Source: Euglena gracilis
Lineage: Eukaryota
Direction: 5' to 3'
Length of the DNA stretch: 64,000 bases
Assembly: GCA_039621445.1 (NCBI GenBank)
Contig: CP154954.1
Coordinates: 9,054,634 to 9,118,633, forward strand
The notes under the pieces were generated by a model. That model searched no databases. It saw only the letters and a program-made list of their open reading frames with translations, and was not told the DNA's origin. The translations under genes and the position numbers were made by a program. Numbering within the stretch: position 1 is the stretch's first letter; every line of letters starts with the position of its first letter. Positions 7,557 through 62,783 of the stretch are shown here, in pieces.

Positions 7557-7600
7557 GGATCCGCGAAGCAAGCGAAGACATGGGAATGGACAACACACCC
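7557..7600 (-). repeat. Split direct repeat B2
   Basis: Identical to 7789-7832. Confidence 0.9.
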
Positions 7601-7695
7601 AAAGGTGGCGGCAGCGTTCTTAGCTGGTCAGCTATCGTACAATACCTCAACGGGGACACGATGGAGCATCAGTGGTCAGCTGAGGTGGTGTGGAG

Positions 7696-7832
7696 AGTGT
7701 TCTTCCTTCGTGAAAGGCACTAGAGGGATAGTGGAGGGTATCTTTGATGCCTAATTGCCTGTCGCGGATCTGGCGATCAGAGATCGTAGGATCCGCGAAG
7801 CAAGCGAAGACATGGGAATGGACAACACACCC
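7696..7832 (-). repeat. Internal B1-A2 junction (B1 7789-7832, A2 7696-7792)
   Basis: A2 is identical to 13355-13451 and B1 is identical to 7557-7600. They overlap at GGAT. Confidence 0.9.
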
Positions 7833-7836
7833 GCCG

Positions 7837-9357
7837 TCATCCGTGGAGCATGCCGATGAGGCGGCAGCGGTGGAAGGATTGGCAGAGTGAGGCGAATCTG
7901 TCTTCGACTGATTGGTTTGGGAGTGATAGGTGGGGGGAGAGGTGCCATCGAGAGATTGGGTCGGCTGGTTGAATGGAGGAAGGGCACCATAGGAGATGGG
8001 CAGTGAGTTTGGTACGGATAATGAAGTTTAGCAAGCGGCGGAGGTCCTTACACAGGGATTGGTTTGACAGGGAGGGGGTAAAGTGGGAGAGGAGGTGCAG
8101 GGTGGAGACATTGTCACCAACAATGGTGCAAGGGTGGAGACCAGTGTTATAGGCGAAGTGGACGGCCTGTTCCAGGGCGAGTAACTCGGCACGTTGTTGG
8201 GAGATGGATGGGCAATGAATACGTTGGATGCGGCAGCCGACGGTTGGGCAGTAAAGGCCGATTTGGCAGCCGCTGGCGGAGATGGCGGCGTCGACGAAGA
8301 TCAGCGGGTTGAAGAAGGAAGGGGGGATGGCGTCGACAGCCTGCCATGGCGTAAGGCCTTGCAGGAGGAGGTGAAAGAGGGCCCGTCGGAGTTTGGGGAA
8401 AGCGTGGTCTATACGACCAAGGGTGTACTTTGTGAGGTACCACCCCCGAAGGAGCAGTGTTGTTCCGCGGTGTGGGCGGTGGTACCACAACATAAAGCCG
8501 GTGAGGCGGTCGATGACCTGGGGATGGAGGGGCATAAACGTGCAGAGAAGTGAGAGGGCGAGTGCTTTCTGCTCTGTGGCGGCGGTGTTTCCGATTGTTC
8601 GGTGGCAGAGGTTGAACACCTTTCCCAGCCATGTGATAGCCTGTGTGGGTAGGAGCGAGGATTTGGGGGAGATGAGGAGGTTGCATGATCGAAGGGTGGA
8701 GGTAATGGTATTGGTGACAAGGCTGCATAGGGTGTGCGATGGGGCGAGGATAAGAATGTCGTCATAATAGGTGAAGATGAAGAAGTGAGTGCCGTGGTGC
8801 AACGTGGGAGGGAGGGAGGAAACAGCGCGGTTAATAAGATCTTGGAGTGTGAGTTGGGCAAGTACAGGGGAAAGGTTCCAGCCAAACGGGAGGCAAGGGA
8901 AGTAGAAGGATGCGGTGCGGAAGGCGTATTTGGCAGCGGGGGGGAGTTCGAGGCTCCAGAAAAAGTTGGTTAAGTCGATGGTGGTGGCCCAGAGAGTGCC
9001 AGGGGGGAACCTGGAGATGGTTTCGGAGATATGGGACAGGGATGGGAGGTGGAAGGGGGGAGGCTCGGAAAAGGTGTTAGCCCAACGTAAGTCGGCAATG
9101 AAGCTGACTTTGCTGCTGTTTTTGGGGTGGATAAAGGAAGCAAGGTTGGAGAAGGGGTGGAAGTCCCCGGAGGGTGGTGGTAGGGGGAGGAGGAAACCGT
9201 CCCGTGCCAGGGAGTGAAGGAGGATCACGGTGAGTGGGGATGGGCGTCGTTGAAGGGAGGGTGGCGGCGGGTGTCGGAGGAGGGTGCGGATGAGGGTGGG
9301 GGGCACAACAGAATCCCAGATAGGTGGGGGGATGGCGTATGAGCCGCGTTGGCCCAA
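7837..9357 (-). CDS. Reverse transcriptase / RNase H (DIRS/VIPER type); true start may lie upstream
   Basis: RT motifs IADLRWAN, TIDLTNFFW, LPFGWNLSP, YYDDILIL and WLG. RNase H motifs FVDAA, QRAELLAL, VGDN and PADPISR. Confidence 0.92.
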   Translation of the reverse strand: MGQRGSYAIPPPIWDSVVPPTLIRTLLRHPPPPSLQRRPSPLTVILLHSLARDGFLLPLPPPSGDFHPFSNLASFIHPKNSSKVSFIADLRWANTFSEPPPFHLPSLSHISETISRFPPGTLWATTIDLTNFFWSLELPPAAKYAFRTASFYFPCLPFGWNLSPVLAQLTLQDLINRAVSSLPPTLHHGTHFFIFTYYDDILILAPSHTLCSLVTNTITSTLRSCNLLISPKSSLLPTQAITWLGKVFNLCHRTIGNTAATEQKALALSLLCTFMPLHPQVIDRLTGFMLWYHRPHRGTTLLLRGWYLTKYTLGRIDHAFPKLRRALFHLLLQGLTPWQAVDAIPPSFFNPLIFVDAAISASGCQIGLYCPTVGCRIQRIHCPSISQQRAELLALEQAVHFAYNTGLHPCTIVGDNVSTLHLLSHFTPSLSNQSLCKDLRRLLNFIIRTKLTAHLLWCPSSIQPADPISRWHLSPHLSLPNQSVEDRFASLCQSFHRCRLIGMLHG

Positions 9358-9617
9358 GCCGCGGAGCGCGAGTTCCTTGGGGGGTGGAAGGGTTGGGGTT
9401 ACTGTAGTATTTTAGTATGAGGAGGAGGAGCCAGTTGATGGAGAGGAGGGAGAAGAGGAGGGAGAGCAGGCGGCCAGTTGTCAGTTGTATGAGAGAATCC
9501 GTGCGCAGGTCGGTGAGGACGTGGAAGAGGAGGCGGAGGAGATGGTACAAGCATCGTCGGGAAACGGGGTGGGGTAAGGGGAGTTTTGAGAGTCGACCAG
9601 CGAGGCCCCACAGTGTA

Positions 9618-10727
9618 TTACGAGATGGTGGAAGGTCGCCGTCGTTTGTTGGATGTGGTTGGGGTTTGGGTAGGGAGGAAGGTGGGAGGGAAGAGGTCGC
9701 CCGGGATGATTGGGATGAAGGGTGTTGGTGCTCCGACTGTGGGGGGAGGTTGGGGAAAGAGCCATGGGACAGTAAGTTGGGGTTCGCTGTGTGCAGGTCC
9801 AATGTATTCCCGGGCTTGTCTTGGGTTCCTCCACCTGCACCAATCCATGATGGCTTCGAGGGGAACTCCGGATTGGGACATGATGCGGGCACAGGCCCGA
9901 CGGAGAGAGTGGAAGGGGAACCCAGCAGCAGCACACGTGTGCTGGAAGACCTGTTTGTAGTGGTGGTGGAGTGTGGCCGGCGGGCAGAAGGGTGAGTCTG
10001 TGGGTTCGGCGACTTCGTAGAGGAAGAGGAGCCAAGAAAGGGTGAAGGAGGTGAGGGTTCGGGTGGTGTCCGGGGAGAGTGGGGGGCGGACCTTGGCGGC
10101 GCGGAAGTGTATGGTTGGTGATGGGGAGGAGAAGAGGAGGGAAGAGCGGGAGAGTGAGGCGGCTTCACTGTAGCGCAGGCCGAGGGAAAGCGCCAAAATG
10201 GTGAGGCCGACAGTGCGGACGTCTTGCAGCGTGGACGGCCGTATTTGGGAAAAAGCCGATGGTGGGAACCACAAGCGGTCGGAGGGGACGTGGATGCGGT
10301 CGGCGGCGGAGGAGTACTTCCACCAGGCTGGTGGGAGGGTGAGGTCGAGCCAAGAAAGGGTGGAGAGGGCTTGGAGGGCGGAGAGGACACCGCGGATGTA
10401 GGAGGAGGCGTGGCCGGCCGCGGCAAGGTGCCCCAGGTAGAGCGGGACCAAGACCACGAGGTCAGTGTCCGGAGGATAGGTGTGTGAAAAGGAGAGGAGG
10501 GAATTGATACGGGAGCAGTACGTGCGTAGGGTGGAGGTGGACCAGTGCCATAGGAGGGCGTTTCCTGGCAGGGGGGTGCGGTCGGGCTGTGCGAGGTGGT
10601 CTTTGAGCTTAGTGAGGCTGAGGTGAGGGCGGAGATGGTGCAAGGAGGTATTGGTGGGGGGAGGGGGGCAGTTTGGGAGGGGGGAGGGGTATGCTGGGGG
10701 GGGGGTTGGGTTAGGGGGGGGGGACAC
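9618..10727 (-). CDS. Tyrosine recombinase
   Basis: Catalytic set present: LGLRYSEA (R), AAKVR (K), FHSLRR (HxxR), CRW (W) and REYI (Y). N-terminal STLRTY core-binding-like region. Confidence 0.92.
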   Translation of the reverse strand: MSPPPNPTPPPAYPSPLPNCPPPPTNTSLHHLRPHLSLTKLKDHLAQPDRTPLPGNALLWHWSTSTLRTYCSRINSLLSFSHTYPPDTDLVVLVPLYLGHLAAAGHASSYIRGVLSALQALSTLSWLDLTLPPAWWKYSSAADRIHVPSDRLWFPPSAFSQIRPSTLQDVRTVGLTILALSLGLRYSEAASLSRSSLLFSSPSPTIHFRAAKVRPPLSPDTTRTLTSFTLSWLLFLYEVAEPTDSPFCPPATLHHHYKQVFQHTCAAAGFPFHSLRRACARIMSQSGVPLEAIMDWCRWRNPRQAREYIGPAHSEPQLTVPWLFPQPPPTVGAPTPFIPIIPGDLFPPTFLPTQTPTTSNKRRRPSTIS

Positions 10728-10733
10728 AGCGAG

Positions 10734-11577
10734 TCATTTGTGGGTTTGAAGCTTGGGGCATTGCCAATGCCAGTGCCTGGGGCACGGGCAATTGGAGCAA
10801 TCCTTTGGGGGCGGAGAGGAGGTGGGCCAAAGCGTTCCCTCCCGGGTTTTGTAATACTCTGTTCCTTGGTGGAACGGAAAGTTGATGTGCCGTGTGGGGT
10901 TCGCCTTTCTGGGCGGAGGCTCCCATGAGGCAGGCGTCGGAGGCAGAGAAAGGGGCTGGACTGGACGGGGGCGCATGGGTTGGCTGTTGGGAGGAGGATG
11001 AGGAGGAGCGGTGCATGTGGGGTTGGTGTGGATCTGTGGTGAGTCGTGCGGCCGGTGAGGTGTAAGTGGCGCGGTAGCGAAAATAGGTGGAGATGAGGAG
11101 GCGCCAAACGGCGAGAAGGGTGTCGTCCTCGGTCATTCCCGAGAGGGAGCGCTCCAGGATGTCGCACAAGTCGGTCATCCAGGTCGGTCCGGGGTGGAGG
11201 GAGCGGAAAGCAGTGATGTTGGTTGGGGAGAGTGTGGCGGAGAGGCTTTCAAGGGTTGGGGGAGGTGGGTTTTGTGATGGTGCGGAAAGGGCGGCGACTT
11301 GCCGGCGCAGGGCCTCCAGTTCGTCCTCTTGGAAGGTCCACTGGAGCGCCTCAGGACCACGTTCAAGGGTGGCTCTTGTGAAGAGTTCGTATGCCGAGAG
11401 GTATTGGAGGGCGACATCGTGGTCCGGGGGTTGGCTGGGATCGGGGAAGAGGGAGGCGAACCAATGTTCACCCCAGGAGGCAGAACGGAGGAGAAGGTTT
11501 GTTTTGTGGCGGGCGATGTCTGTGGGGTTGACCCCTGTCATGAAAGGAGTGGCGGGCGGCATTTTGAAGGAATTCAT
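10734..11577 (-). CDS. Gag-like protein with CCHC zinc knuckle (frame change near 10980)
   Basis: Helical ORF from ATG 11577 (MNSFKMPP..QEDELEALRRQVAAL..). CSNCPCPRHWHWQC fits C-x2-C-x4-H-x4-C at about 10758-10799 in the 10734-10976 frame. Confidence 0.7.
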
Positions 11578-12505
11578 GGAAGGAGATGGGCCCGGGGTTC
11601 TGTTCAACGTCACCGCAGAGTAGGATGGGGGTGCCGTGTGGCGAAGTTTGAGGCATGTTAGGGGCGGATATGAGGGCGATGAACACGGGCCAAGGTGCCG
11701 GAGGTGCAGGGGAGCCGTCGGGGAAGAGGAAGCAGGGGGTGGTGTGGATGGTGATGAGCCTTGTGGCGGCGGTGGTGAGGTCGGTGAACCATTGAGCCTG
11801 GCTGAAAGGGAACAGAACCAGCGCGTGCGGTCGTTCGTGCAGGACTTTTTTGGTGACCAGGGGCAAGAGGTAGAAAGGTGGGTTGATCCAAAGGAAGCCC
11901 AGGTGGCTCCAGGTCCTGTTGAGGGCGGAGGAAGCTTCCGAGAAAAAGTTGGTGGTTTGTGCGTTGCTAGCTGAGGCGAAGAGGTCAAGGTCCGGTGGAG
12001 GGAGCGACCAGAAGTCCAGGATGCCCCAGAGGGGGGGGGGGCGGAAGACGAAGTGCCGGCTGGGGGGACCCGGGTTTGGTTGGATGTCTCCGCAGCGGAC
12101 GACCCAGTTCGGACCCCAGGTGACCTTCCAGAGGGTGAGGCCGTAGTTCCCAGGGGTGGCAGCCGGGGGAAAGTCATAGTGGTCGTGGCAGGGATTGGGG
12201 TCGTGGTGCTCGCCCCTTTTTTGGCATGCCGCCGGGGTGGGGGCGGGGGTCCTTCGCTCCCACCCATCCAGCATTTTTGGGAGGAGTCCGGCTAGAAGGC
12301 AGGCACAGAGGAGGTAGATCATTGATCTGGCAGACTGCAGTCCCATCACTGGCGGAGACAGGGCTTTTGCACAGGGTGGGGGGTGGGGGGGGAGGCCGCG
12401 GAGCCACTCCGACAGAAAGGTTGTTTGGGCAGGGGGGGGCCGAAGTTTCGGCAGAATACTTCGCAGGTCTTCCATTTCTTCATCACAAAGGGAAAGGGGA
12501 TCCAA
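11468..12505 (-). CDS. Dam-like N6-adenine DNA methyltransferase domain flanked by two 2A-like motifs
   Basis: DLDLFAS..NA and LWINPPF motifs, as in DIRS-type MT domains. VVRCGDIQPNPGP ends at 12065 and ILLCGDVEQNPGP ends at 11588. Confidence 0.85.
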   Translation of the reverse strand: MDPLSLCDEEMEDLRSILPKLRPPPAQTTFLSEWLRGLPPHPPPCAKALSPPVMGLQSARSMIYLLCACLLAGLLPKMLDGWERRTPAPTPAACQKRGEHHDPNPCHDHYDFPPAATPGNYGLTLWKVTWGPNWVVRCGDIQPNPGPPSRHFVFRPPPLWGILDFWSLPPPDLDLFASASNAQTTNFFSEASSALNRTWSHLGFLWINPPFYLLPLVTKKVLHERPHALVLFPFSQAQWFTDLTTAATRLITIHTTPCFLFPDGSPAPPAPWPVFIALISAPNMPQTSPHGTPILLCGDVEQNPGPISFHEFLQNAARHSFHDRGQPHRHRPPQNKPSPPFCLLG

Positions 12506-12624
12506 GCCAGTGGGGGAGGGGGGGGCGACTGAAATGGGGGAGGGGGGTGCAGAAGGCCCTGGGAGGGGGGGGGGTGGGGTTAGCCTGGTTAGGGAGGAAA
12601 TGATTCCTCAATTGTTCATATAAT

Positions 12625-13347
12625 TCAGCTGTAATTTGGATAGTGGGGGTGGGGTTGGGAGGTGGTGGTCCAGGGGGGGGGAGGGACATCCCGGCCAACA
12701 TCCCCACCGCAGGGGCCCACTGGGCCACAGGGGTGGGGAGGGCCGGGGGGGGGAGGGGGAAAGAAGGTGTGGAATGGCAGTGTGTGTGGTAGGTTGGTGT
12801 TGATGTAAGTTTGGGTGGGAAGGGGTGGTGCCAATTGTCTTTGCAGGGCCCGCAGGGCCTCTGTAATTGGGACAATTGGCACCACAGGTGGGGGGGGGAG
12901 GGGGGGGGGAGGGGGCACAAAACGGGGATGGCGATTGTAATGGGGAATGTGCTGGGGATGGGGGCGGTGTTCGTTTACGTCTCCTTTGCTTCCTTGGTTT
13001 CCAAACTCCGGGTTCTTCTTGCCAGCGCCAGGGTTTTGCTCCACAGCTTGGTTGTCGTGCTTCTTGGCTTGCCTTTGGGCTTTTTGCTTGCACACCTTGG
13101 TCAAATGTGGCTTTTTCTGGGATTGCTTGATTCCGGGTAATCGAACTCGGAGGGGGGCTGGTGCCAGCGCTTGCTTCAGCCGCCTTGCTCGACGCTTCTG
13201 GCTCCTGGTTTGGCCATCCTTTTGCGTGGCTGCCTGCTCTTGTCGCTTTCTCTCCACAATCTCTTCGATGGTCAGACTGGCGACGCTCGAAATGTCGGAT
13301 ATTGTTGAGAGTTCCTCGCTGTCACTTGACTTTCCAGTTTCAGGCAT
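12625..13347 (-). CDS. ORF1 of the YR element: basic/coiled-coil then proline-rich, probably continuing into the MT ORF through frameshifts in C runs
   Basis: ATG at 13347 just inside repeat A1. The overlapping ORFs 12483-12920 and 11468-12505 are separated by homopolymer tracts. Confidence 0.55.
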   Translation of the reverse strand: MPETGKSSDSEELSTISDISSVASLTIEEIVERKRQEQAATQKDGQTRSQKRRARRLKQALAPAPLRVRLPGIKQSQKKPHLTKVCKQKAQRQAKKHDNQAVEQNPGAGKKNPEFGNQGSKGDVNEHRPHPQHIPHYNRHPRFVPPPPPLPPPPVVPIVPITEALRALQRQLAPPLPTQTYINTNLPHTLPFHTFFPPPPPGPPHPCGPVGPCGGDVGRDVPPPPWTTTSQPHPHYPNYS

Positions 13348-13354
13348 CGTATTC

Positions 13355-13451
13355 AGTGTTCTTCCTTCGTGAAAGGCACTAGAGGGATAGTGGAGGGTAT
13401 CTTTGATGCCTAATTGCCTGTCGCGGATCTGGCGATCAGAGATCGTAGGAT
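13355..13451 (-). repeat. Split direct repeat A1 (5' end of element)
   Basis: Identical to 7696-7792. Confidence 0.9.
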
Positions 13452-48900: not shown

Positions 48901-50892
48901 TTGGAAAACTGAAATAACTGTACTAAAGCGTCAGCCACTTGGTGTCGACTGTCGGGGGCGTCCGACAGTCAAAAATGGTAAGGCGGAAGCTTTTGAAAAC
49001 ACGGAATTTTTCATTCTGCGCAGAACGCGCATTCAATAGGAAAAGCTCAATTTGGGGTTCAAATTTAACACAATTTGCTTCCGCAGACCTTTGTGCTTTT
49101 TTTTTGACATTGGCATCAATCAACAATCGAATTGGAGAATCGAAATCAAGAGAAGGTACATTGTTTGCAAGAATAGTCAATTTCAGGTCCCTCTTCCCAC
49201 TTTCACGGTGTGTGCGTGTTTCTGTTGCCTTTTAACACCATCCATTGCAACAAAACACCCACCCTGACCATTTCCAGTGTTTTTGCATAATTAAGAAAGG
49301 GTGGGTGAAATGGCTACGTGGGGACTGAAATTTGGGACTACATTTTTGAAGGAACGGAATTTTGACTTTGTGCAATTTTTCAGGAGAAAAGCAAATTCGA
49401 TCCTACGCACACCCCTCTGGTCGGGGGGTACACCAGTGGGCGAAACGGGGGGTGGCCTGAGCCCTCCACCACCGGAAAAAACACTGGCCCCGGGCCAGGG
49501 AACGGCAACCCCAAGGGTGGGTGTCGGGGACGAGGCAGCCGGCCGGGGGGCTGGGGGCTGGGGTCCGACACTCGCAGGGGGGGCGCCGGGTGTGAACATG
49601 GTTAGCAGAGGTGGCTTCACTGACCCTGTCAGTGAAGAGTTTTCAGAACCCCTGAACATGGTACGCAGAGGTTTCTTCACTGACTCTGTCAGTGAAGAAT
49701 TTTTGGATTCAAATGATGACAAACATGGTTGGCGGAGGTGGATTCACTGACTTCGGCAGTGAAAAGTTTTCGAACTCCTTGAACATGACAAGCAGAGAAT
49801 GTTTTGCCAGCCCTGTCGACAAAACTTTTTTCAGCCCAGAAAACACGGACGAATTTGCTGGCACAGCCAGCAGAAATATTGCTGAAAAGTTTGACATGGT
49901 CACAGAGTTTTCAGAGTCCAAAAAGTTTGCTGAGTCTGTGAACGTGGAATCACAGAATTTCTCAGGTCAGCCACCAGATTTTTCGGAGAGCAGCCCCCGA
50001 AATCAAAATGTCAGAACTGCAGAATCTGTGGAATCTGAGGGGTTGTTTCAATCAGTGGGTCGAAGTCAGCTGGGCGAATGGAATCATTCAGGTTTTTCTG
50101 CAGGGTCTGCCAATCAATTTTCAATCTCAAATCAATCAATTCTCAGCTCCCTGCCATTTACAATCACAGGTTTTACACAATCACAGGTTGCTTCAGGTGA
50201 TAATTTAGAGTTTTTTGTCTGAAAAATCAGGGGATAGCCCTGTAAACTGTTTCCCCGTAAGGATGATAACTGCACAGGGGGAAAATTCACAGCCAGAAGG
50301 GGAAAACCAGCTAGTTCAGTGGGCACAATCCCCCCCGTCGTATCAAAGTGACTGTGAAACGGAGGGGAGGGTGCGCAAAACCCAGATAGGTTTGGAGAAA
50401 TGGATGATTTTTTGATTGCTGCAGGTTGGGTACCACCCAGAAATAAGGTTTTGGAGCAAAATCTGCCAGATTTTTCTGCGAGTTTCAGTTTTATGGTGCA
50501 AACCCCCCAGCTGGAGGAAAGCATAATTCCCCCCCAGGTTGTGATTGAGAATCGGCTGGAAATTTTTGAGAAAAATTTGGCTGAAAAAAATGCTCGAGCA
50601 CAGAGAGGACTTTTGCATTTCATCCACGAAAATTTGGAGAAACATACTGCTGAAATGTGCAGCCAGTTTGAGCACGAAAAGCAAAAAAGTCAGGAGCAAA
50701 TTCAGCAATCAGTCAGCCAATTTATTTTACGATGCCAGGAAGGGGGGAGTGCTGTGGAAAACATTGCAAACTGCCACAAACAACTTTTGGGGATTGAAGT
50801 TCAAAGGCAGATCGAAGGGAAATTTCATGATTTTGAGAAAAAATTACGGGATTTTCTGGGTGGTGAGCTGGCACAACTTGAGAGCCATAGAA

Positions 50893-51400
50893 ACGATGTC
50901 CAAAACAAATTGTTTGCACCAGGTGGGTTGGTCGAGCAAGTTGGAATTTGTTTACATTCTGTCGAGGGAATAAAGTCAGATTTTCAGAAAGAAGTTTTGG
51001 CAATCCGACAAACAAATCGTGAGCTATGCTCTGGGGTGGACAGAAAATTTGCTGAAATCGCTGCTGGGCTGAAAATGGTGGGGGAGGAATCAAAATCAAG
51101 TTTTGGAACCTTAACCCAGGAAATTCAGCAGCGATTGGAAGCAACTAGAAACGAGAGCAAAGCTCTGGGGGGCAGGACCACAGCAATTGAGAAATTTCTG
51201 GGCAGCCAGCAGGTGGGTTGGGATAAGGTGGTTTAAATGCTGGGAAAATATGAAGCAACAATTCAACTGGAAGTTCGTAGGGAAACGGCAGCCCAGGTCA
51301 GAAAAAAATGGAAATTATGATGGTGAAAATGATGGATGAAAACCTGAGGCAAACCCAAAAGGAAGAACATTTTGAAAAATTGCAAACTGACATTGAAAAT
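50893..51400 (+). repeat. 508-bp direct duplication, left copy
   Basis: Matches 58447-58954 with one substitution noticed. Confidence 0.92.
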
Positions 51401-51876
51401 TGGACGTCTCAGAATATTCTTTTGTTTTTATTTAAATCCTCGGATTCCCAATTTTTCTTGATATCCCAATTGTCCCCAAAGACGTAACACAATCAATGCA
51501 ATGACATAACCAGAGCCAGCAGTCTGCACAGGAGGAAAGGTTCGAATTAGGAATACAAAGTTCGGTTCGGGCGGTTAGTAAATAGTCCGCACACGCCCCC
51601 CATGCCGGAGGACGCGGCGCCACAGGCACAGGACGAAACGGCATCACACCACAAACAAAACGGCTTTACTGTGTTCAAGCACTGATACATGGTGTTCAAC
51701 ACGAATTGTCCACAAAAAAGGTTCAGAACGACAAATGTCAACACAAAGGAAGGTAAAAGAGGTTACTTCCGACGTTCACCGTGGTCCCTTCACTTCGTGG
51801 TTGGCTTGCCATTCAAAAGTAACACAAACCTGGGCGAAACTCCTCGCATCAATGGCAGGTTTGTGACTGAAAGCCT

Positions 51877-52944
51877 TCAAAGGTTAGACAACAATCCACC
51901 CATGGCGAGGCGGGTTGGTGTCTCCTGACCCGAAAAACCATCCAAAAGGCCCCCTGGGGGGCTTGACTTTCCTCCCGCGTGACTGAAAGCACGATCAAAA
52001 CATTTGGGGGGAGGCCAGGCTGTCTCTTGCGATGCCAACCCCCATTCGCATTCTGAAACGTCGCAAAACATTCTGAGCGCCTGGCGTAGGATCGATTGTA
52101 AATTGTGATCCACACAATAATTCTTGAAAACCTCATTCATTCTGCCTCCTGGTTGCACAAAGGAAGCCACAGGCTCCCATGTACTGCTGCTTGCCGGAAA
52201 AGTCTCCCACCAAACCAAAAATTTCCATCCCCCTTGGTACTTGTGCTTCAAAATCTTGTAAACATTGTAAAAACCCAATTGTGCTTGTTCTTCTTCTGAC
52301 ATCTGAAGGGGGGGATCCCCTCCCTGGTCTGGCATGGGGGTGTCACCCTCCACTGGGTCTCCCACAACCACTTCACCGGTCAAAAGGTCTGGGTCTTCTT
52401 CCAAAAGGCTTTCTTCATGCAAAGCAACCTCCCACCTTTTGCACAAACCCAAAGAGACATCAATGACCCCTCCCAAAGATGGACTGCTTGCAATTTGCAC
52501 TGAATTGAACCTCGATTTGAGAACCCGAAAAGGTCCTTGCCAGGGGGGGGAAAGCTTGGGCCATGATTTGTTTGGCCATCTTTTGTTGTGCACCAAAACA
52601 TAGTCATCTTCTTCAATTTTTGCTGGTACCCTCCCTTTGTTGGCACTCTCAAAATCCTTTTTCCTCAATTCTTTCAATCTCTGGGAAGCTCTTTCTTGAA
52701 TTTCCATCTGGGTCAAAAGCCAAGAATGGGTTTCTGGATTTGTCACCGGTTCTGGGGGTAATTCCAACCTCCAAGCTGGTCTGCCCAAAAACATTTCATG
52801 GGGTGACAACATTGTTGTGGGGGAAATCTGCGAATTCATCAAAAATGTGCAATACGGGATCAGCTGCACCCAATTTTTGTCCTTGGAAGACAGACTCAAT
52901 GCTCGCATATTCTGCAAGAACATTTTATTGACATTTTCAACCAA
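51877..52944 (-). CDS. Integrase C-terminal half with GPF motif and chromodomain
   Basis: VENVNK supplies the DDE glutamate. SPHEMFLGR and KLSPPWQGPFRV motifs. Chromodomain FYNVYKILKHK..KFLVWWETFPASSSTWEP. Confidence 0.9.
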   Translation of the reverse strand: MVENVNKMFLQNMRALSLSSKDKNWVQLIPYCTFLMNSQISPTTMLSPHEMFLGRPAWRLELPPEPVTNPETHSWLLTQMEIQERASQRLKELRKKDFESANKGRVPAKIEEDDYVLVHNKRWPNKSWPKLSPPWQGPFRVLKSRFNSVQIASSPSLGGVIDVSLGLCKRWEVALHEESLLEEDPDLLTGEVVVGDPVEGDTPMPDQGGDPPLQMSEEEQAQLGFYNVYKILKHKYQGGWKFLVWWETFPASSSTWEPVASFVQPGGRMNEVFKNYCVDHNLQSILRQALRMFCDVSECEWGLASQETAWPPPKCFDRAFSHAGGKSSPPGGLLDGFSGQETPTRLAMGGLLSNL

Positions 52945-53966
52945 ACCGTTTGATCGGGGGTTCCGGGCAGAGAAAACGATAATTTCACGTCAAGAGCTTT
53001 CAGGGCTGTCTGGTAAAAACCACTGGGCTGTCTGAATCGCACGTCGTTGTCAGACCTCACAACAGACGGTTTTCCAAAAACAGAAATCCACCGGTCCAAA
53101 ATAAGCCTCAAAACACCTTCTCCGGTTACCGTTTTCTGTGTGGGGATGAATTGGCAAAAATGGGACAAATTGTCGACCAAAGTCAGAACCAAAAAGTCAT
53201 AGTCAAAACCATTGTAGGGGTCCATTTGCACAAAATCCGAACACAAAACTTCATTGCTCAGTGTTGGAATCGGTAAAGAACCCACCTTTCCACGGTCACT
53301 GGGGCGGTTTTGTTTTGAAAGGGTGCAAGTTTCACATGTCATCACAATGGCACTGCAAATTTCCAACATGTCTTTCTTGGAAACCTTGGACTGAAAATGG
53401 CTCAAAAAGAACAACAAAGTCCTTTCAGCACCAACATGGTTGCTTGCCTTGTGACATTCATCCAAACAAACTTTCAACAAATGAGATGGAACAACCAACT
53501 TTCCTTCACAATACATGGCCTTGGCAGATCTGAACCAAAACTCATTGTCAATGAAACAGGGTTTTGAAACCTCCACTTTTTTCCAAAAATCCTTCAGCTC
53601 TGAATTCAAATAACCTTTTTCTGACACTTGCACTCTGTGGGACAAACTGAAAATCTTCTGCAAAAACAGGTCAAGCTGCACATCCATTTTCTGAAAAGCG
53701 TTCCTTGCTTCTTCCTCAAAATGAATTTCAAATTTGTTCCCAAAATCAGCACGAGACAAAAAATCACACAATTCATTTTTGCAACATGCCACATGAACGA
53801 TATTCAGTTTGAACTGGTGCAAAAACACATACATCCTTCTCAGTCTTTTGTTGAGGGGGGGTTCACCCTTCAGAAAAGAGGTGGCTGCCTCATTGTCTGT
53901 CATCCACACAATTGGCAGATTTTGCAAAATCCTTGTTTGTGAAGCAATGGTCAGCACACCACTCAA
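52896..53966 (-). CDS. RNase H C-terminus plus integrase Zn-finger and core
   Basis: WMTDNEA and NELCDFLSR (RNase H); CHKASNHVG..CETC (HHCC); SDFVQM and RSDND (DDE aspartates). Confidence 0.88.
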   Translation of the reverse strand: MSGVLTIASQTRILQNLPIVWMTDNEAATSFLKGEPPLNKRLRRMYVFLHQFKLNIVHVACCKNELCDFLSRADFGNKFEIHFEEEARNAFQKMDVQLDLFLQKIFSLSHRVQVSEKGYLNSELKDFWKKVEVSKPCFIDNEFWFRSAKAMYCEGKLVVPSHLLKVCLDECHKASNHVGAERTLLFFLSHFQSKVSKKDMLEICSAIVMTCETCTLSKQNRPSDRGKVGSLPIPTLSNEVLCSDFVQMDPYNGFDYDFLVLTLVDNLSHFCQFIPTQKTVTGEGVLRLILDRWISVFGKPSVVRSDNDVRFRQPSGFYQTALKALDVKLSFSLPGTPDQTVWLKMSIKCSCRICEH

Positions 53967-55207
53967 AATTTCCTTTTGTATTTTTTTCTTGCCTCACTCC
54001 ATTTCCAGTTGTAGTGGCCCAAGGGCACCAACCTCATTTTACTGGGGTAGTTGTTTTTCAGGGTTCCATCCACCTTCACACCACTTGTTCGAAAATTCTC
54101 AGGAATTTGTGTTTGTTGGAGGGTTTGCCACTGAAACAATGCTGAACCACCTCCCAAATCCGAACTGTCAGTCACCAAAACAATCTCTCCTGAACTCCTG
54201 GGGGTACCCAAAACATCAAGAGAAGACCACTTCCTTTTCAATGCATTCAAACAACTCTCCTCCTTTTCAGTCCACCTCCATTTCACATTCTTTTTCAGAA
54301 GATCTGTGAGCGGGGCTGAGTCAAAAGTAAAACCTTTCACGTGTCTGCGGTAGAAATTCATGGCTCCCAAAATTCGCCTCAAATCCCTTTGATTCTGAAC
54401 TCGAAAACTCAGAATTGGTTCAATGTTTCTTTTGTTTGCCTGCCACATTCCCCATCCCAACGAGAAACCCAAATAGTCAATGGACTGATTCAGAAAGGAA
54501 CATTTGCTCAATTTGATTCTCACTTGGTTCTTTCTGCAAACTTCAAACCACTTTTCCAAAAGATACAAATGATCCTCCTCAGAGTTTGCACCAACCCCTG
54601 TGTCATCGAAAAAAGAAGCCAGGTGTCCATCCTTCAAAATCTCTCTCACCCTCAAATCCGTTTTGCATTGGGAGGTTAGAATTTCCATCAGCTCCTGAAA
54701 AATACCCGGTGCATTACTTAGGCCAAACATCATCCTTTTGGGACGAAAACACCTCCCAGATGGAATGCAAAATGCAGACAAATTTGCTGCTCTTTTTGTG
54801 ATTGGGATTTGCCAATACCCACTCCTCGTGTCCAGGGTACTTTTCCACCGACATTTGGCCAAACTTTTAATCAAAACCTCCATGCTTGGCAAATAACCTG
54901 CATGTGCCTTGCTTCTGGCATTCAATTTTCCATAATGGATGACCATCCTTCTGGTACTTGACCCTTTTTTGTCCACCAAAAATGTGGGGCTGCACACCTG
55001 GGGGATTTCACCAACTGGGAATTGCTCAATCAACCCTGACTTTAGCAATTCTTCACACTGAAGGTCAATTTCTTTTTCATCCTCCTGGGGCATGGGCCAA
55101 CACTTTTGCCTTAGGGGTTTACCTTGCCATTCAGGCTTCAGCTCAATGTCCATCAAAACAGGCAGGGGGGGAAGGCTCAGAAATTGTGGGCAATGGTCCA
55201 AAAACAT
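53963..55207 (-). CDS. Reverse transcriptase plus RNase H N-terminus
   Basis: SPTFLVDKK, RMVIHYGKLN, LDTRSGYWQI, MFGLSNAPGIFQ, FFDD, YLGF and LVTDSSDLGGG. Confidence 0.92.
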   Translation of the reverse strand: MFLDHCPQFLSLPPLPVLMDIELKPEWQGKPLRQKCWPMPQEDEKEIDLQCEELLKSGLIEQFPVGEIPQVCSPTFLVDKKGSSTRRMVIHYGKLNARSKAHAGYLPSMEVLIKSLAKCRWKSTLDTRSGYWQIPITKRAANLSAFCIPSGRCFRPKRMMFGLSNAPGIFQELMEILTSQCKTDLRVREILKDGHLASFFDDTGVGANSEEDHLYLLEKWFEVCRKNQVRIKLSKCSFLNQSIDYLGFSLGWGMWQANKRNIEPILSFRVQNQRDLRRILGAMNFYRRHVKGFTFDSAPLTDLLKKNVKWRWTEKEESCLNALKRKWSSLDVLGTPRSSGEIVLVTDSSDLGGGSALFQWQTLQQTQIPENFRTSGVKVDGTLKNNYPSKMRLVPLGHYNWKWSEARKKYKRKF

Positions 55208-57801
55208 CAGAAAATTTCACCAAAAGCTCATACAACCTGGGGTGGTCTCTTAATTTCTCAACTTCTTTTTCAAATTCTCCACTCAGATTCTCAGTAAACA
55301 ATTTGCTGCTTTTTTCATCAGCCTTTTTCTGGGCCTCCAAAGTCCAAATCTTTTCATGCAAAACTTGGGAAATGCTTTTGAGTTCATCCATCTTGATTGT
55401 TGCCTTGGGAGTTTTCACAGGTTTTGCAAACTGCACATCTTCCACAGGCTGGGCCAGCTGGAAAAACATCACCTCCACATCTTTTCTCACCTCTTGAAAA
55501 AGACTCAGCTCACTTTCAATGTCTTTTGTCAATTCAGCCAAAAAATTGATGTTTTCATGCTCATTCATTGATTCAAACACCACCACATTGTCCAACCATT
55601 CTTTCATCTTTTCATCTGATTCCTTGGGGGGAACATTCTCCAAAGGAAAACTTGGACTTTCAAAAACTTGCTTGTCTGCAGGTGGACTGGCAGGCTGGGG
55701 TGCCTGCTGCTGGGGGGGAACATCAGGAAGAACTGGGAAATCCACTTGAATTCCATCATCCACTGTGGGATACTTCCTGATCTCACCTCTCAGTTCATCC
55801 AAACTCCAATTCCTTGAAACTTTTCTGAGCCAACTGACAATTTTGGGGTCCAAAAGCTCAAAATCCACTTTGAATTGCACAGTGTCCACCACACTCACAA
55901 AAGTGTTCCACAGGGGGGAGGGCAGCACCTTTTTGCACCTGTCACCCACAAACAAGGGAACCCCACTTGAAATTTTCACCCTGGCCACAGTCACCCTTTC
56001 CAGCAGGGGGGACCAGTACTGGTCCACCCAGTCTGGGTGTACCAGGACCATTTTTGTTTCTTCAATGCACAACTTTGTCACCACTTTGCTTAGTTGGCTG
56101 AAGGGGGGGTTTGCCCACAGAAACTTGGAAGCACCAATGTCACACAACAACCTTTCCCATGAATACCTGTAGGCTGAATTCCCTTTTGTCATGTACAAAG
56201 ACTGGGTGTGGTTCAGGTGGTTTGCAAAAAGATCAATGCAAATCTGACCCTCAGAAATCTTCAATTCATCCAAAGCTTTTGTCTTCACTGGCTTCACCAA
56301 AGTGTAGCTTTCTGTCTTGAAAAGTCTGAAAATTCTTTTGATGGTGTGGTCCCCATCATGGCTCTGAAGTAAAAACTCCTCACCATCAATGATGATTCTG
56401 GGGGGTCTGGTCAGCAACCCACCAAAAAATTCACTTTCAGTAAAGTCAGTCCCCAAAACTGCCTCGAAGGCATTTGTTTCAACAACAACCGCTTTAAGCT
56501 TTAGAATTTTTCGTCCCAACTCCAAACTCACCTCACACACTCCTTCAGAAAAAATGTACTCCCCGTTGCCGATCTGCAGGGGTACCGCAGCACTCCGCTG
56601 AATTTTATTCTCTGGAACACATTTCTTAGAAACTGCAGTAATGGTGGCCCCTGTGTCCAAAATGGCTTGAATTTCCTTTCCATAAACCCTCACTGGCAAA
56701 AGATAAGTTTTACACACCATCTGGAGCAACTGCAAAGCATCAGCCTTTCTCTTTTTGGGGTTCTCACCCTGGGGGGTAACCTGGGTTTGCACTCCCTGGG
56801 GTTGAACCGAAGGGGTCCCTTTGCCTGCCCCCTTCTGGGCTGCTGCCTTCTTTTTCTCAAACTTTTCTTTTGACCAACATCTGTCTTCATAATGCCCTTT
56901 TTTGTGACAAAATCGACAGAAAATTGTGGCTCCAAATCGTGGGGCTTTTCTTTCACCCTTGCCTTTGCCTTTTCCTTTGCCTTTTCCTTTTTCACCAGAT
57001 TTTCCACCTTTTCCAGATTCTGGGACATTTTCACCAACTTTTTCAGATTGATCAGGGGGTCTTTCAATCAATGGTCTGAGATTTTCTTTTTTCAGCAAAT
57101 TCCTCTCCAACCAATCTTCAGAACTTTTCTCCAAAATTGTTTTTCTCAAATCTGTGAATGTCTCAGAACGATGTTTGTAAAATCTGTCTGCCCTGATGTC
57201 TGCATACATTCTGGGGTGTAATTTCCTCAGCAAAACCAAAAACTTTTCCTGTTCACTCATGGCCTGGGGGCTCAACCTGGCCATCAAATTGTCCAACTCA
57301 ATGAAAAGTTTTTTGATGTCTTGGGGTTCAGGGTTCTGGGAAAGTGTTGGCAATTTGTCAATGGCAGACCTCAAAGTCATGTCATTTTCCAATGTTGGGA
57401 ACAAATTTGCAATTCCCAACAGCACTTTTTCAAAATCATCATTCTCATCCATCACTTTTTCAACCAGTTTTTTTCACCTTGGGGGTGCAACATTCCAACA
57501 GCCAATCCTTTTTCTGGACATTTCCAAATGCAACTGCGCCAGTTAACCTCAACCATCTGCCAAAATCTTTCAAAAACTCTGGCCAATTTGTGCCATCAAA
57601 CTCTGGCAATTTCACAGGGGGTAATCTTGAACTTTGGGTTGAACTTTGGCTGGGGTTGCTGGAATTTGGTTCCACAATTTGCTTCAGAAATGTTTCAACC
57701 TGGGTGATGGGGTTCACAGGGGTAAACACAGATTGACTGCTGCTGGCTGATTTCATTTCCAATTCTTGCAACCTTCTTTCCAAATCTTCAATGGAGGACA
57801 T
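55143..57801 (-). CDS. Gag (CCHC), aspartic protease and Dam-like N6-MTase (frame change near 57460)
   Basis: PVKLPEFDG; CRFCHKKGHYEDRC; AILDTGAT. MT domain at about 55880-56315 with IDLFAN..N, LWANPPF and LVHPDW..W, in the same frame as the protease. Confidence 0.9.
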
Positions 57802-58446
57802 TTCTGCAGATCACTTTCAAAAAAACTCAACCACTGGCTCTGAAAACTGGGAGAAACAGAAACACTGGCCAACCCAAAAAGACAAACAAAAACTGAAGAA
57901 ACCAGAACAGAAAACCAACCACTGGGTTCAGGACCAGGTCAGCAAGATGATGAAGATCTTGCCACAACCAGGATCTTGTTCTGGACAGCAAGGTGAACAG
58001 CACCACTTACAAACTTCCTCAACCAAATAACCAATACAACAACTGTTGACAAATTCTCCACTGTGAACTTGTTCACCACAGCCTCAATGTCAACTTCCTG
58101 TTGAAGGTGTTGTTCTGTACCAGCAACTTGGTTAACCTTGCCTTCAGGAACACCAACTTCTGGAACTTCAATAACCAGTGAAACAACGTTGAATCTCCTC
58201 GAAGACGTCTTGGACGATTGGAACAACAAACCTCTGCGACCAACTTTGGACGTCTCAGAATATTCTTTTGTTTTTATTGAAATCCTCGGATTCCCAATTT
58301 TTCTTGATATCCCAATTGTCCCCAAAGACGTAACACAATCAATGCAATGACATAACCAGAGCCAGCAGTCTGCACAGGAGGAAAGGTTCGAATTAGGAAT
58401 ACAAAGTTCGGTTCGGGCGGTTAGTAAATAGTCCGTTAGTAATAGT

Positions 58447-58954: not shown

Positions 58955-60983
58955 CAAGTGAGACAGCAATTTTTCACAGTTTTGATGAACATGCAGACAG
59001 ATTTTCAGCCTGAAAAGAGTCAACGGGAGGGTTTGCAAGAACTGTGTCAAGCTTTGCAGACTCGTTTGGCTTTCATGGAGGGGAGGGTTCAGGAAATTTC
59101 AGTCAAAAAATCACAGCAAATTCACCCCAAGGCACCTGAAGTGGCCCAGCCCAAGACAGTAAATCAGCCGAATTCTGGGATTTTTGGCATTAAGGGGGTG
59201 TCACCGGCTCAATCATCTGGGATTTTCGGGGTTAAGGGGGTGACCCCAATGATGCCATGTGAAATCTGGGATGTTGATCTGGGCGGGTGCAGACCATCAA
59301 GTAGTTCACAGGGGGTGCAGTTGCAATAAATCAGGTCAGTGGCAATTGTGCCATTGTGGGGGCACCCCAGCGACCCCCAGTCATAAGTGTTGGTAACCCA
59401 GCGGTGCAGCATGTGTTGAGAAATTTGACCGCACAAAATGTTCAGGGAAATATCAAGATTGGCAGCAATTTTTTGAGGATTGGCAAGCATTTTCACGGAA
59501 ACTGAATTCTGCAGGGGGGGGAAGTGAGTGAAGGTTTGAAAGTTGCTCTGTTGGAGGATTCTCTTGACCAAACGAGCAAAAAAATTTCTGAAGCTCCATC
59601 TCAAGGAAGGGGGGATCAATTTTAATGCCGGGTGGGGTCACCTGCAAATGACATTTTCGAAGAATCAGGAATCTGGGGCAAGGAAAAATTGGCAACAGGT
59701 GAATCTTTTTAATCAAGGCAAAGTTACCCTTGAGCACTGGCTTGAATTTCAGGCAAATTTCAAGATGGCCAAGTGCAAGGTTAAGGATGCCGGGGAGGGG
59801 GAAGCAAAACGACTTTTGTTGCGGAAACTTCCCATTCGTCCTAAAATGGGTTTCAGATGAGGAGGAAAGGAGGCTGAATAATCAGCCAACTTTACGCCTA
59901 AAGATGCCAGGGAATAGGAATTCAGAAACGGTGGCAGAAAGCCTGGGGAAAATGGTTGGGAAAAGACCCACAAAAGTGTCGGAAATTCACAAATACGAAA
60001 TCATTTTCCCTGACATTTCTGCTTATGAAAAAGTCAAGAGTTTTCATGGCAAAGAGTTTGACGATTCAAAAGTTTTGTTTCAGGTTCAGGAAATTGAACC
60101 AATTTTGACCACCGAGGATATTTTCAACCTCGTGAAAACGAAGTTGACACTCGGAAACAAGCATGACGCCTTACTAAGTTCTGTTTCATCCCCAGGATAT
60201 CAAGGGTTTAGGCGTTCAAGGTCGGTGGGTGCTGAAAATCGAGGGGGGAGGCAATCAGGGAGTCGGAAGAGTTCACCATGGTAAACCTCTGGTAGGGCAA
60301 CCACACCTCCCCCAGCCAGAAGCAAATCACAAATCAGCGAAACAGCAAAACCTGATCAATCTGTTGCGGTTTCATCTTCAAATGTGCAGCCATCAAGCAA
60401 TTCTTCAAGGCTTTCAACGGTGGAGAACCCACCCAACGTGCAAAGACCGGTGGTGGGGGTGATGTTGCTAGACAAGCCCCGTGGAACAGAAACAATTTTC
60501 AGCCGTATGGTAAGGGCAGCCAATGGAAAGGGAGGAATAATTCCCAGGGACATGGGGCAAATAACTCCCAATGGTATGGGGGTAACCAACAGGGGTACAA
60601 GGGGAAGGGTGGTAAGGGAAGAGGGAAGGGCAAAGGTTTTGACTAGAATTTCGGTGCCAAAGGGGGGAAGGGCAATAACAATAACCCAACACCAACGGTT
60701 GCCCGCCCTATTCGTCATTAGGGACGCCGTGGTCATTTTTTTGAGGGGTTTACATCCTCGGGCATCGAAAACCCCCAACGTATTTTGCATAACCCAACCA
60801 AATCTTCACATGGAGGATATTACCGTGGTGGAGATTCCAATTTCTTCACCTCAGGTTCAAAATCAGGCAATGAAGAGTGTGCAATATCGAAGACGAGCAA
60901 CGGTGCCAATTCAATGATTTCAATAAGTTCATCCTCGACAGCCAACTCGAGAAGACAAGTGGCCTTGAGCTTTGAGGCCTTGA

Positions 60984-62036
60984 GTGGCCAAATGGCAGCC
61001 TGTGTCGAGGAAGGGCAAACCGTGTACCAGGTGTGCAAGCCAGGAGAGTGCACGGCCCAGGTTCAACAATTATTATGGTTGTTTGAGCGAAAGACGATCC
61101 ATCAAAGGTGTGGGAAGTTGGAAAGTTCCCAAGGCGTTGGATTTGTTTTCGGGAAAAGGGTTTGTTGGGAGGTGTTTGGAGGAAAACGGGTACCAGGTGG
61201 TATCCTTGGATGTGAACCCAAAATTTCACCCAACCCACGTCACGGATATTCTGGAGTGGAATTATCGAAAATACCCCCGTGGATATTTTCAAGTCATAAC
61301 GGCAAGTGTGCCTTGCACGGAGTATAGCCGTGCTAAGACGGTGCGAGAAAGAAATTTGGAATGGGCAGACCAAGTGGTGACAAAAACTTTGGAAATTGTG
61401 GAGTATTTTCAGCCCAAATTATGGTGGATTGAAAATCCTCGAACGGGACTTTTGCCAAAAAGGCATTGTGTGCAAAATTTGAATTTCATTGACGTGGATT
61501 ATTGTCAATTTTCCGACTGGGGATATCAGAAACCCACTCGTATTTGGGGGAGTCAAAATTTGTTGCGTTTGAAGGACAACCTTTGTGATGGGAAAACCTG
61601 CCCCCATTTGATTGTGAGTGAGGGGGGTGGGTTGGTTCTCAAAGAACAATTGGGAGGAAATGGAATGAGGGTGAGCACTCAAATAAAATGGAGAGTACCT
61701 GAGAAGTTGGTCGAGTACCTTCTTTCGACCCTTGATTTTAAGGAGGAGAAATTTTCTTTCAAACGTGAGGACTATGCCGTTCAAAATTCATTTGTGCAAA
61801 TGATTGAGGAGAATTTTCAAAGGAGGGCCGAGGTGGATTGTTTTGCTTCTACACAAAACTCTCAGTGCACGTCATATTTGACCGACAAGGAAAATGCTTT
61901 GGCGGTACCATGGGGAGGGGGAGGCACGGTTTGGTTGAACCCTCCCTGGTCATTGTGGCCAAAGGTGGCAAAGAAATTGCAAAAGACCCTTGTGATGACA
62001 TTTGAATTTTACCCGATTGGAACAGAGGTTGGGTGA
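60984..62036 (+). CDS. C5-cytosine DNA methyltransferase (about 61131-61733) followed in frame by a Dam-like N6-adenine MTase (about 61768-62150; tail frameshifted)
   Basis: C5 motifs: I LDLFSGKG, II VVSLD, III TDI, IV ASVPC, VI WIENP, VIII YCQF..YQKPTRIW, X WRVPEKLVEYLL. Then VDCFAS..N and WLNPPW, with ILPDW..W in the next frame. Confidence 0.9.
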   Translation: MAKWQPVSRKGKPCTRCASQESARPRFNNYYGCLSERRSIKGVGSWKVPKALDLFSGKGFVGRCLEENGYQVVSLDVNPKFHPTHVTDILEWNYRKYPRGYFQVITASVPCTEYSRAKTVRERNLEWADQVVTKTLEIVEYFQPKLWWIENPRTGLLPKRHCVQNLNFIDVDYCQFSDWGYQKPTRIWGSQNLLRLKDNLCDGKTCPHLIVSEGGGLVLKEQLGGNGMRVSTQIKWRVPEKLVEYLLSTLDFKEEKFSFKREDYAVQNSFVQMIEENFQRRAEVDCFASTQNSQCTSYLTDKENALAVPWGGGGTVWLNPPWSLWPKVAKKLQKTLVMTFEFYPIGTEVG

Positions 62037-62042
62037 AAGAAC

Positions 62043-62783
62043 TTGTTCGGAAGGCAACAAAAAAGTTGTATTTTACACCTGGAAAAGCTTTTTGAGGTCG
62101 ATGGGAAACCAATGGGGGGTGTGATGTGTGGAGTTTGGGCCTTGTTGATAGAGGGTAATAAGCCCCCCGCCAACACTAGCAACCCGAAGAAACCAAAGGT
62201 GGTACATTTGAAATCACGGATGGTTAAAAAGAGATACCCAACCACAGGTATTGAGAAATTTTCCAAGGACCGACAACTTTTGATTCGGACAAGGGTTGTT
62301 TTGGGAAACGGGGAAGAACAAAACATGGACGTTTTGGTAGACACCGGTGCGGAGGTTAACCTCATAAGGCAAGGGTTGGTGAGTGAGCACCTAATGTATT
62401 CGGCCGAACACCCCTTGAGGTTTGAAACCGCTGACGGTCAAGCCTTGAGTGGTGGGTGGAGGTGCACTAAGGTGATCATGAAATTGCAAGGGGAGGTGAA
62501 CGATAATACCCCACCCACAGATTTTGGGTACGATGTGGAATTTTATGAAGCCAATATCAAAGTGGACGCAATTTTGTCATACCCATGGCTTGTGCAAACA
62601 AAAATTGGAATTTTTCCACATCATCGTGCTTTGGTAGTGGAGGAACCCAAGTTGACTTTTTTTTTCGGTGTGAGAGATCAAAGGAGAAAACGACAAGGAA
62701 AAGTCCCTAACACACTACCCCAAAGGGGGGGGGGTGACAAATTTGGAAAAGTTTGGTTTCCAACTTCCTATGGAGGGTTTTGA
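62043..62783 (+). CDS. Retropepsin-like aspartic protease (preceded by the MTase tail)
   Basis: MDVLVDTGAEVNLI, FETADG and DAILSYPWL. Confidence 0.85.
   Translation: MFGRQQKSCILHLEKLFEVDGKPMGGVMCGVWALLIEGNKPPANTSNPKKPKVVHLKSRMVKKRYPTTGIEKFSKDRQLLIRTRVVLGNGEEQNMDVLVDTGAEVNLIRQGLVSEHLMYSAEHPLRFETADGQALSGGWRCTKVIMKLQGEVNDNTPPTDFGYDVEFYEANIKVDAILSYPWLVQTKIGIFPHHRALVVEEPKLTFFFGVRDQRRKRQGKVPNTLPQRGGGDKFGKVWFPTSYGGF

Follow-up and report, generated by a model that had tools for sequence, protein, structure and literature searches.

Methyltransferase (MT) domains in the pol region of DIRS retrotransposons are older knowledge (Muszewska et al. 2013, PMC3783388), and the decades-old question of why retrotransposons carry them has been renewed by a preprint (Fernandez-Moreno et al., May 2026, bioRxiv 10.64898/2026.05.21.726589). 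The preprint describes a single DAM family of eukaryotes, shared by DIRS and Ty3/Gypsy elements, with incongruent DAM and reverse transcriptase (RT) trees, at least four transfers of DAM from DIRS to long terminal repeat (LTR) elements, and mixed DIRS/LTR elements of Euglena gracilis in two clades, which are read as domain exchange or nested insertion. Its DAMs keep the NPP motif, and its model is the deposition of N6-methyladenine (6mA) on reverse-transcription intermediates. Elements that combine a DNA methyltransferase (DNMT) with DAM are termed EpiLTRs and are defined by their chromodomain. Here we analyzed a 64-kb stretch of E. gracilis DNA (contig CP154954.1, positions 9,054,634 to 9,118,633; hereafter the window), which contains a truncated non-LTR element, a tyrosine recombinase (YR) retrotransposon and two Gypsy-type elements, one nested in the other. 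The YR, inner Gypsy and outer Gypsy elements each carry a DAM domain. Comparison with homologues indicates that the DAM module has very probably been exchanged among Gypsy lineages, both by moving between slots and by being replaced in the same slot by another subclade.

The window elements belong to the same DAM family as the preprint's DAM-LTR and DAM-DIRS elements and share their exchange and tree incongruence. The exchange idea as a whole is already published there, and the window is a further instance of the kind described, to which same-slot replacement and a structural lead to the RNA methyltransferase CAPAM are modest additions. For one clade, the text of the preprint states a single slot, located between RT and integrase, whereas the window and its homologues show several; further architectures appear in Fig. 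2B of the preprint. DAMs joined to LINE (long interspersed nuclear element)-like RTs are treated in the preprint as possible chimeras or artefacts, whereas we found DAM in three single-frame non-LTR polyproteins (P0118, P0161 and P0175). The terms "gag," "protease," "2A peptide," "skipping," "Ngaro," "PCIF1" and "CAPAM" do not occur in its main text. Our literature search returned neither 2A motifs around a retrotransposon DAM nor same-slot DAM replacement, which subscription journals and preprint figures or supplements may nevertheless hold. The outer Gypsy element resembles EpiLTRs in that its Gypsy-type pol combines a C5 DNMT with a DAM, but the defining chromodomain would fall past the window end and the outer copy is broken. 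Repeated recruitment of DNA methyltransferases by LINE, DIRS and Gypsy elements alike is known from Symbiodinium and Klebsormidium (de Mendoza et al. 2018, PMC5890265), where, unlike DAM, the enzymes are cytosine methyltransferases of other families.

The YR element, like DIRS-like elements (PMC3783388; Ribeiro et al. 2019, PMC6681497), is a YR retrotransposon with a PF05869 domain. It has the parts that define order DIRS, namely, a gag-like open reading frame (ORF), a tyrosine recombinase and RT/RNase H (RH), with no protease or DDE integrase detected by Pfam. DIRS elements have inverted repeats at their ends and an MT that shares pol with RT and RH, whereas the window element has its MT in ORF1 between 2A-like motifs. 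Its YR precedes RT/RH, and its termini carry split direct repeats like those of Ngaro, PAT-like and VIPER elements (PMC6681497, PMC3783388); the order A1-B1-A2-B2 fits the Ngaro/PAT-like/VIPER-like definition. Assignment to the DIRS-like superfamily was considered and rejected, since the repeats are split direct rather than terminal inverted ones with an ICR and the MT is in ORF1 rather than in pol behind RH. In our RT tree, which held no named reference sequences, the RT of this element sat on a long unsupported branch.

The three window domains are almost certainly homologous, as the original prediction had claimed from an alignment by eye. PF05869 (Dam) was the sole Pfam family returned for each of the three domain-only queries, with 37.1 bits for the YR and 47.1 bits for the outer domain, above the cut-off of 28.1, and 24.0 bits (E 3.5e-5), below it, for the inner one. 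The PHROG 111 family "DNA methyltransferase" was the top match for all three, and pairwise BLASTP gave identities of 26.5% over 117 aa (E 1e-10), 32% over 78 aa (5e-15) and 27.7% over 83 aa (1e-9). The catalytic-pocket Asn-Pro-Pro plus aromatic residue is present throughout (NPPF, NPPF and NPPW). The motif pair D[LCAVM]FA-25..45-NPP[FWY] occurred three times in the window and never in 100 block-shuffled windows, with DLFA at 11986 and NPPF at 11884 in the YR element (minus strand), DLFA at 56234 and NPPF at 56111 in the inner Gypsy (minus) and DCFA at 61836 and NPPW at 61938 in the outer Gypsy (plus). The DxFA and NPP(F/W) motifs thus lie where they had been predicted, but the proposed "ILPDW..GW" of the outer domain is in a different frame. 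The predicted locations before gag, after protease and before protease are indeed three different positions, with two amendments: the first is inside ORF1, and a C5 methyltransferase that had been overlooked precedes the outer DAM. In the DAM tree, the window domains grouped with retroelement DAMs and were split at 100/95-96 from a small outgroup of 6 and 4 viral-contig rows; the underlying scan of viral contigs found 12 loci with phage-type DAM ORFs and served as outgroup only.

Homologues were labelled by their neighbouring domains and comprised the best 150 of 3893 cluster representatives and the best 120 of 236 longer proteins; the Pfam scan covered 82 of 151 homologous proteins. The DAM domain set held 165 of 167 sequences (one short and one duplicate omitted), the protease tree 32 of 35 matches (length and E-value filter), and the mixture-model DAM tree 43 hand-picked rows. 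For the LG+G4 DAM tree, the RT tree and the related approximately unbiased (AU) tests, 22 of 91 RT-RH-DAM DIRS proteins were taken (4 chosen, 18 random). The groups for the AU tests of exchange among Gypsy lineages were defined after tree inspection, so the p values are optimistic, although the pattern recurs in four separate proteins.

The window DAMs fell into three subclades: the YR domain with other 2A-bracketed DAMs including P0001/P0041 (support 99/90-92), the outer domain in clade B (100/96-99) and the inner domain in clade A (98/91; 94/89 under the mixture model). The nearest relatives of each (49-66% identity) reside in similarly built elements. A recent direct swap of DAMs between the three families of the window was rejected: a single clade of the three DAMs gave an AU p of 4.6e-44, so they are not recently derived from one another.

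Exchange is instead seen among Gypsy lineages. The protease (PR) tree separated two types at 100/100, and clade A DAMs are attached to both, 11 to the inner type (type I, all PR-DAM) and 5 to the outer type (type II, all DAM-PR); clade A elements as one protease clade were rejected (AU p 0.013). In the RT tree, the outer element grouped with P0166, P0170 and P0302, whose DAMs belong to clade A, apart from the inner element (90/94), and a single RT clade of clade A elements was likewise rejected (AU p 0.032). Individual proteins show replacement within a slot. In P0053, an outer-type C5 tail (46%, E 6e-27) is followed by an inner-type DAM, which matched the inner domain at E 6e-31 and the N-terminal half of the outer domain at only E 3e-6. 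In P0047, P0038 and P0058, an inner-type DAM is followed by an outer-type protease (39-42%), to which the inner protease gave no match. These four proteins grouped at 100/100 within clade A in the mixture-model tree, and forcing the nine proteins of C5-DAM-PR type into one DAM clade cost 98 log-likelihood units (AU p 3e-61). Clade A occupies three slots, PR-DAM-RT, DAM-PR and RT-RH-DAM-IN (IN, integrase). A common origin of all pre-protease DAMs was also tried and rejected (8 of 32 rows, p 2e-76).

The incongruence of MT and RT trees that the original prediction had proposed as a check was therefore found among Gypsy lineages, in the RT, protease and C5-DAM-PR tests alike. Its wider claim of repeated capture or exchange holds for exchange between Gypsy lineages and fails for the three window families, and it gains little for repeated capture into Gypsy, where all Gypsy DAMs as one clade gave p 0.047 under LG+G4 and p 0.165 under the mixture model. 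A single capture followed by relocation and swapping is accordingly borderline under the first model and not rejected under the second. Its notion of a host pressure that favours methylated cDNA is speculative. Clade A was sister to the canonical RT-RH-DAM DIRS proteins P0087, P0107 and P0177, the last labelled Entosiphon sulcatum, at 100/93 (LG+G4) and 81/92 (mixture). Since support drops under the mixture model, derivation of clade A from euglenid DIRS elements is suggestive only.

Sequence identities show that the DAM domain is under constraint and is conserved as well as RT. Between the inner element and P0157, identity was 63% for DAM, 66% for RT, 59% for the integrase core, 53% for protease and 33% for the linker, and DAM was also far above the linker in comparisons with P0288, P0155 and P0156. 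The YR element and P0001 shared 50% identity in DAM and 48% in gag. The catalytic Asn is found in 51 of 52 Gypsy-context homologues when NPLF is counted (NPPF/W in 50 of 52), in 12/12 2A/gag-context and in 3/3 non-LTR homologues. In RT-RH-DAM DIRS proteins, it is present in 35 of 97 only, and 60 of 97 have FPPF.

Taken together, these data lead us to favor, with some reserve, the view that the retrotransposon DAMs are old and separately inherited, have a PF05869-like amino-methyltransferase fold, and form a position-independent cassette of ~140 aa with a proposed role in marking cDNA or hybrids. The domain would be cut free from the polyprotein, in Gypsy by the protease of the element itself and in the YR element, which has no protease, by ribosome skipping at the 2A motifs; because DAM would be freed in either case, the position of its slot would not matter. 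In the YR relatives P0001, P0041/P0153 and P0109, a single frame runs through N-terminal region, 2A, DAM, 2A, gag-like core and CCHC (frameshifted in the window copy), and the downstream 2A-like motif stands at the same place in P0001, P0041, P0109 and P0144. The module could move when retroelements that are co-packaged or nested recombine, in a genome that is very rich in them. The freed enzyme might then act in cis in the particle, N6-methylating adenine in nascent cDNA or the RNA:DNA hybrid, and a new insertion might thereby carry 6mA, which the host could maintain as an "active" mark, as in the preprint's model; these last two steps are the least certain. In line with that model, 6mA-bearing insertions are commoner for DAM-LTR than for other LTR elements in two ichthyosporeans and E. 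gracilis (bioRxiv 10.64898/2026.05.21.726589). We hold catalytic activity on DNA or a hybrid to be an evenly balanced proposition.

Several observations weigh against this reading. The homologues were gathered with profiles from the three window domains themselves and come mostly from metagenome contigs, the trees rest on ~150 columns, and the AU tests on the protease and RT trees gave modest values. When the 11 rows with a type I protease were constrained to one clade in the DAM tree, the constraint was not rejected (p 0.38), so transfer may have run in either direction. The solved structure nearest to the modelled inner DAM appears to be that of an RNA enzyme. ApT observed/expected was 0.72-0.90 in the elements versus 0.87 between them, showing no enrichment, and ApT, GATC and 4-mer counts in the elements gave no target-site signal. 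Eukaryotic DAMs caused no rise in 6mA in dam-minus E. coli (bioRxiv 10.64898/2026.05.21.726589), and the MT domains of DIRS1 were considered likely inactive by Iyer et al. 2016 (PMC4738411). The outer DAM copy is a pseudogene, with a frameshift near 61983, a TGA at 62003-62005 and a second frameshift near 62080, and in the bins of the inner and outer DAMs RNA depth stayed below 1.3 (one RNA run, 5% of reads).

A distinctly less probable alternative is that the same mobile cassette acts on element RNA, methylating an adenosine, either internal or next to the cap, at N6 in the manner of CAPAM/PCIF1. Methylation would protect or license the transcript, and the 6mA of insertions would arise as a side effect of their transcription. 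A structure model of the inner DAM (the domain modelled; pLDDT 94.5) gave top matches that were all S-adenosylmethionine (SAM)-dependent methyltransferases. The nearest solved structure in both searches was CAPAM/PCIF1 (Foldseek 6irw, E 4.9e-5; VIA 6irx, Z 9.6, root-mean-square deviation 3.2, 128 aligned); T4 and E. coli Dam scored lower (Z 7.6). Among PDB sequences, the two top matches were also CAPAM, sharing FASxxN, NPPF and PxW at E values that are not significant (0.19 and 0.41). Non-LTR elements are not known to make free cDNA, and DAM is present in the three non-LTR polyproteins named above. Iyer et al. (PMC4738411) place the DIRS MTs in the PCIF1 clade, an origin on which the preprint takes a different view, and the negative E. 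coli assay was of DNA. Against this, KsgA/Erm structures (Z 8.5-8.8) come within 1 Z unit of CAPAM, so the substrate cannot be deduced from the fold. The window DAM shares 17% identity with CAPAM, its profile fits the phage Dam family better, and its sequence is far nearer the phage "DNA methyltransferase" families (PF05869, PHROG 111) than PCIF1; a solved PF05869 protein may merely be missing from the PDB. CAPAM has a cap-binding helical domain, of which the 140-aa DAM has no counterpart, and Pfam scans of the DAM host ORFs found no WW domain. If the substrate were RNA, the 6mA-mimicry model would need revision. A related proposal, on which we place similarly little weight, is that "DAM" is a CAPAM-like enzyme for element RNA or RNA:DNA hybrids, rather than a dsDNA Dam, in a self-releasing cassette shared by the YR, LTR and non-LTR orders of one host lineage, with the same-slot turnover of subclades that is expected if target specificity shifts under host conflict.

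Slightly more doubtful still is a non-catalytic role, in which DAM is kept for binding nucleic acid, SAM or a host protein and NPP is retained for structural reasons. The domain is still kept in the canonical DIRS proteins with FPPF, inactive, binding functions were proposed by Iyer et al. (PMC4738411), and the E. coli assay was negative. However, the Asn is kept in all three window domains, unlike the DIRS copies judged inactive in that study, and in nearly all Gypsy, 2A and non-LTR homologues, and the contrast between its retention there and the FPPF group suggests selection on catalysis. Finally, one ancient acquisition per retrotransposon order followed by vertical descent and relocation, with little or no exchange between lineages, is improbable: a single Gypsy DAM clade is not firmly rejected, the closest relatives of each window DAM have like architectures and the clade A-DIRS link weakens under the mixture model, but relocation alone cannot explain how two different DAM subclades came to lie between C5 and protease domains of the same types, nor does it account for the attachment of clade A to both of the protease types, which separate at 100/100.

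Although no new kind of element is present in the window, its natural variants are useful for the design of tests. These are the YR DAM, whose natural boundaries at two 2A-like motifs would likely give a soluble construct; sister families that differ only in the DAM subclade in a slot; and families with intact motifs versus FPPF. The features of the window are listed in Table 1.

Table 1. Coordinates and features of the DAM-bearing retroelements (positions within the window)
Feature	Position	Strand	Description
YR retrotransposon	7557..13451	-	Order ORF1, YR, RT/RH; split direct repeats A1..B1-A2-B2
YR split direct repeat A1	13355..13451	-	97 bp, identical to A2 at 7696-7792
YR 3' repeat block	7557..7832	-	B1 7789-7832, A2 7696-7792, B2 7557-7600; B 44 bp, identical pair
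2A-like motif upstream of YR DAM	12065..12091	-	GDIQPNPGP, Q instead of the usual E; activity predicted only
DAM domain 1 (YR element)	11657..12061	-	DLFA...NPPF, open frame; Pfam Dam E 3.1e-9
2A-like motif downstream of YR DAM	11588..11614	-	GDVEQNPGP
YR gag-like core with C-terminal Cys/His knuckle	10752..11587	-	Frameshifted copy; tblastn of P0001, P0153, P0109
Tyrosine recombinase ORF	9621..10733	-	Pfam Phage_integrase E 4e-8
YR element RT/RNase H ORF	7840..9411	-	Pfam RVT_1 E 7.8e-13
Inner chromodomain Gypsy	51401..58435	-	gag-PR-DAM-RT-RH-IN-chromo
Inner Gypsy LTRs (~190 bp)	3' LTR 51401-51593; 5' LTR 58247-58435	-	3' LTR TG..CA; 5' LTR with first 4 bases missing
Inner aspartic protease	56442..56696	-	Pfam E 2.8e-10; type I on protease tree
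DAM domain 2 (inner Gypsy, clade A)	55833..56312	-	DLFA...NPPF, open frame; Pfam Dam E 3.5e-5
Inner RT core	54461..54937	-	Pfam RVT_1 E 9.3e-22
Inner integrase and chromodomain	52165..53492	-	One frameshift near 52964
Outer Gypsy upstream coiled-coil/gag-like region	50358..51400	+	Split by inner element; 50893-51400 duplicated at 58447-58954
Outer Gypsy C5 cytosine methyltransferase	61134..61733	+	Pfam DNA_methylase E 4.1e-6; PHROG 757 E 2.2e-12; in frame with DAM
DAM domain 3 (outer Gypsy, clade B)	61761..62156	+	DCFA...NPPW; Pfam Dam E 2.8e-12; two frameshifts and a stop
Outer aspartic protease	62283..62606	+	Pfam E 0.0024, weak; type II on protease tree
Outer RT	62935..64000	+	Several frameshifts; continues past window end

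The inner Gypsy fits DAM-LTR in its PR-RT-RH-IN order, its TG..CA LTR pair and a DAM in pol, and its RT grouped with PR/IN-bearing polyproteins in a tree that held no named Gypsy reference RT. Clade A DAMs share a C-terminal extension of ~35 aa, with which the inner copy reaches ~55767. The outer element fits DAM-LTR on its Gypsy-like RT, protease and DAM. The inner Gypsy is inserted in its upstream part, after which the outer order resumes as C5 methyltransferase-DAM-PR-RT, the first two sharing one frame (60984-62033). P0019 and P0020, relatives of the outer element, read through the stretch that is broken in the outer DAM, and the breaks were not among the indels listed from the read comparison. 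In a public DNA run (17,466 contigs; summed depth is no copy number), the inner and outer Gypsy families both seem to be abundant, and two frameshifts of the inner copy were absent from other copies. RNA read peaks were seen at 57939-58405 (inner 5' LTR/leader) and 60741-61207 (just upstream of the outer C5 domain); they carry many loose ends and thus probably derive from related copies.

The target duplication on either side of the inner Gypsy measures 508 bp (50893-51400/58447-58954, 99.8%) rather than a few bases, and a filler at 58436-58446 (11-12 nt) beside the inner 5' LTR is almost a copy of the LTR end next to it. In the two bins that lie mostly over the 508-bp copies, contig depth was about half that of the flanks, which indicates that the duplication is local to this locus. 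The insertion looks like a one-ended, repaired integration, but may be an assembly artefact. CpG observed/expected was 0.31 in the inner Gypsy (51400-58435), lower than in the YR element (0.72) and in the DNA between elements (0.60), a strong depletion consistent with host CpG methylation.

The slot of the C5 methyltransferase also varies among P0078, P0054, P0066 and P0053 (DAM-PR-C5, PR-DAM-C5 and C5-DAM). P0078 is labelled Genlisea aurea (a plant) at NCBI, possibly through contamination. P0015 (483 aa) has two tandem DAM-like domains, the first with NPPH. A scan of metagenome contigs with the inner DAM gave 82 pattern matches, none confirmed. The non-LTR element of the window (398-5101, plus strand) has one 2A-like motif at 1565, ahead of RT. 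Its closest relative is P0175 (52% over 924 aa), which has an upstream DAM flanked by 2A-like motifs; no DAM is seen in the window copy, where tandem repeats of 27 and 75 bp replace the 5' part.

An Rfam scan of the window returned no matches. Between 14000 and 49000, short inverted-repeat elements with G/C runs are densely packed, and some seem to be nested; examples of arms are 15370-15565/35246-35417, 20383-20532/35865-36012 and 44713-45021/46974-47301. Two 289-bp direct repeats (98%) at 40375-40663 and 41760-42048 lie 1.4 kb apart with no long ORF between them, and this pair is possibly a miniature LTR element.

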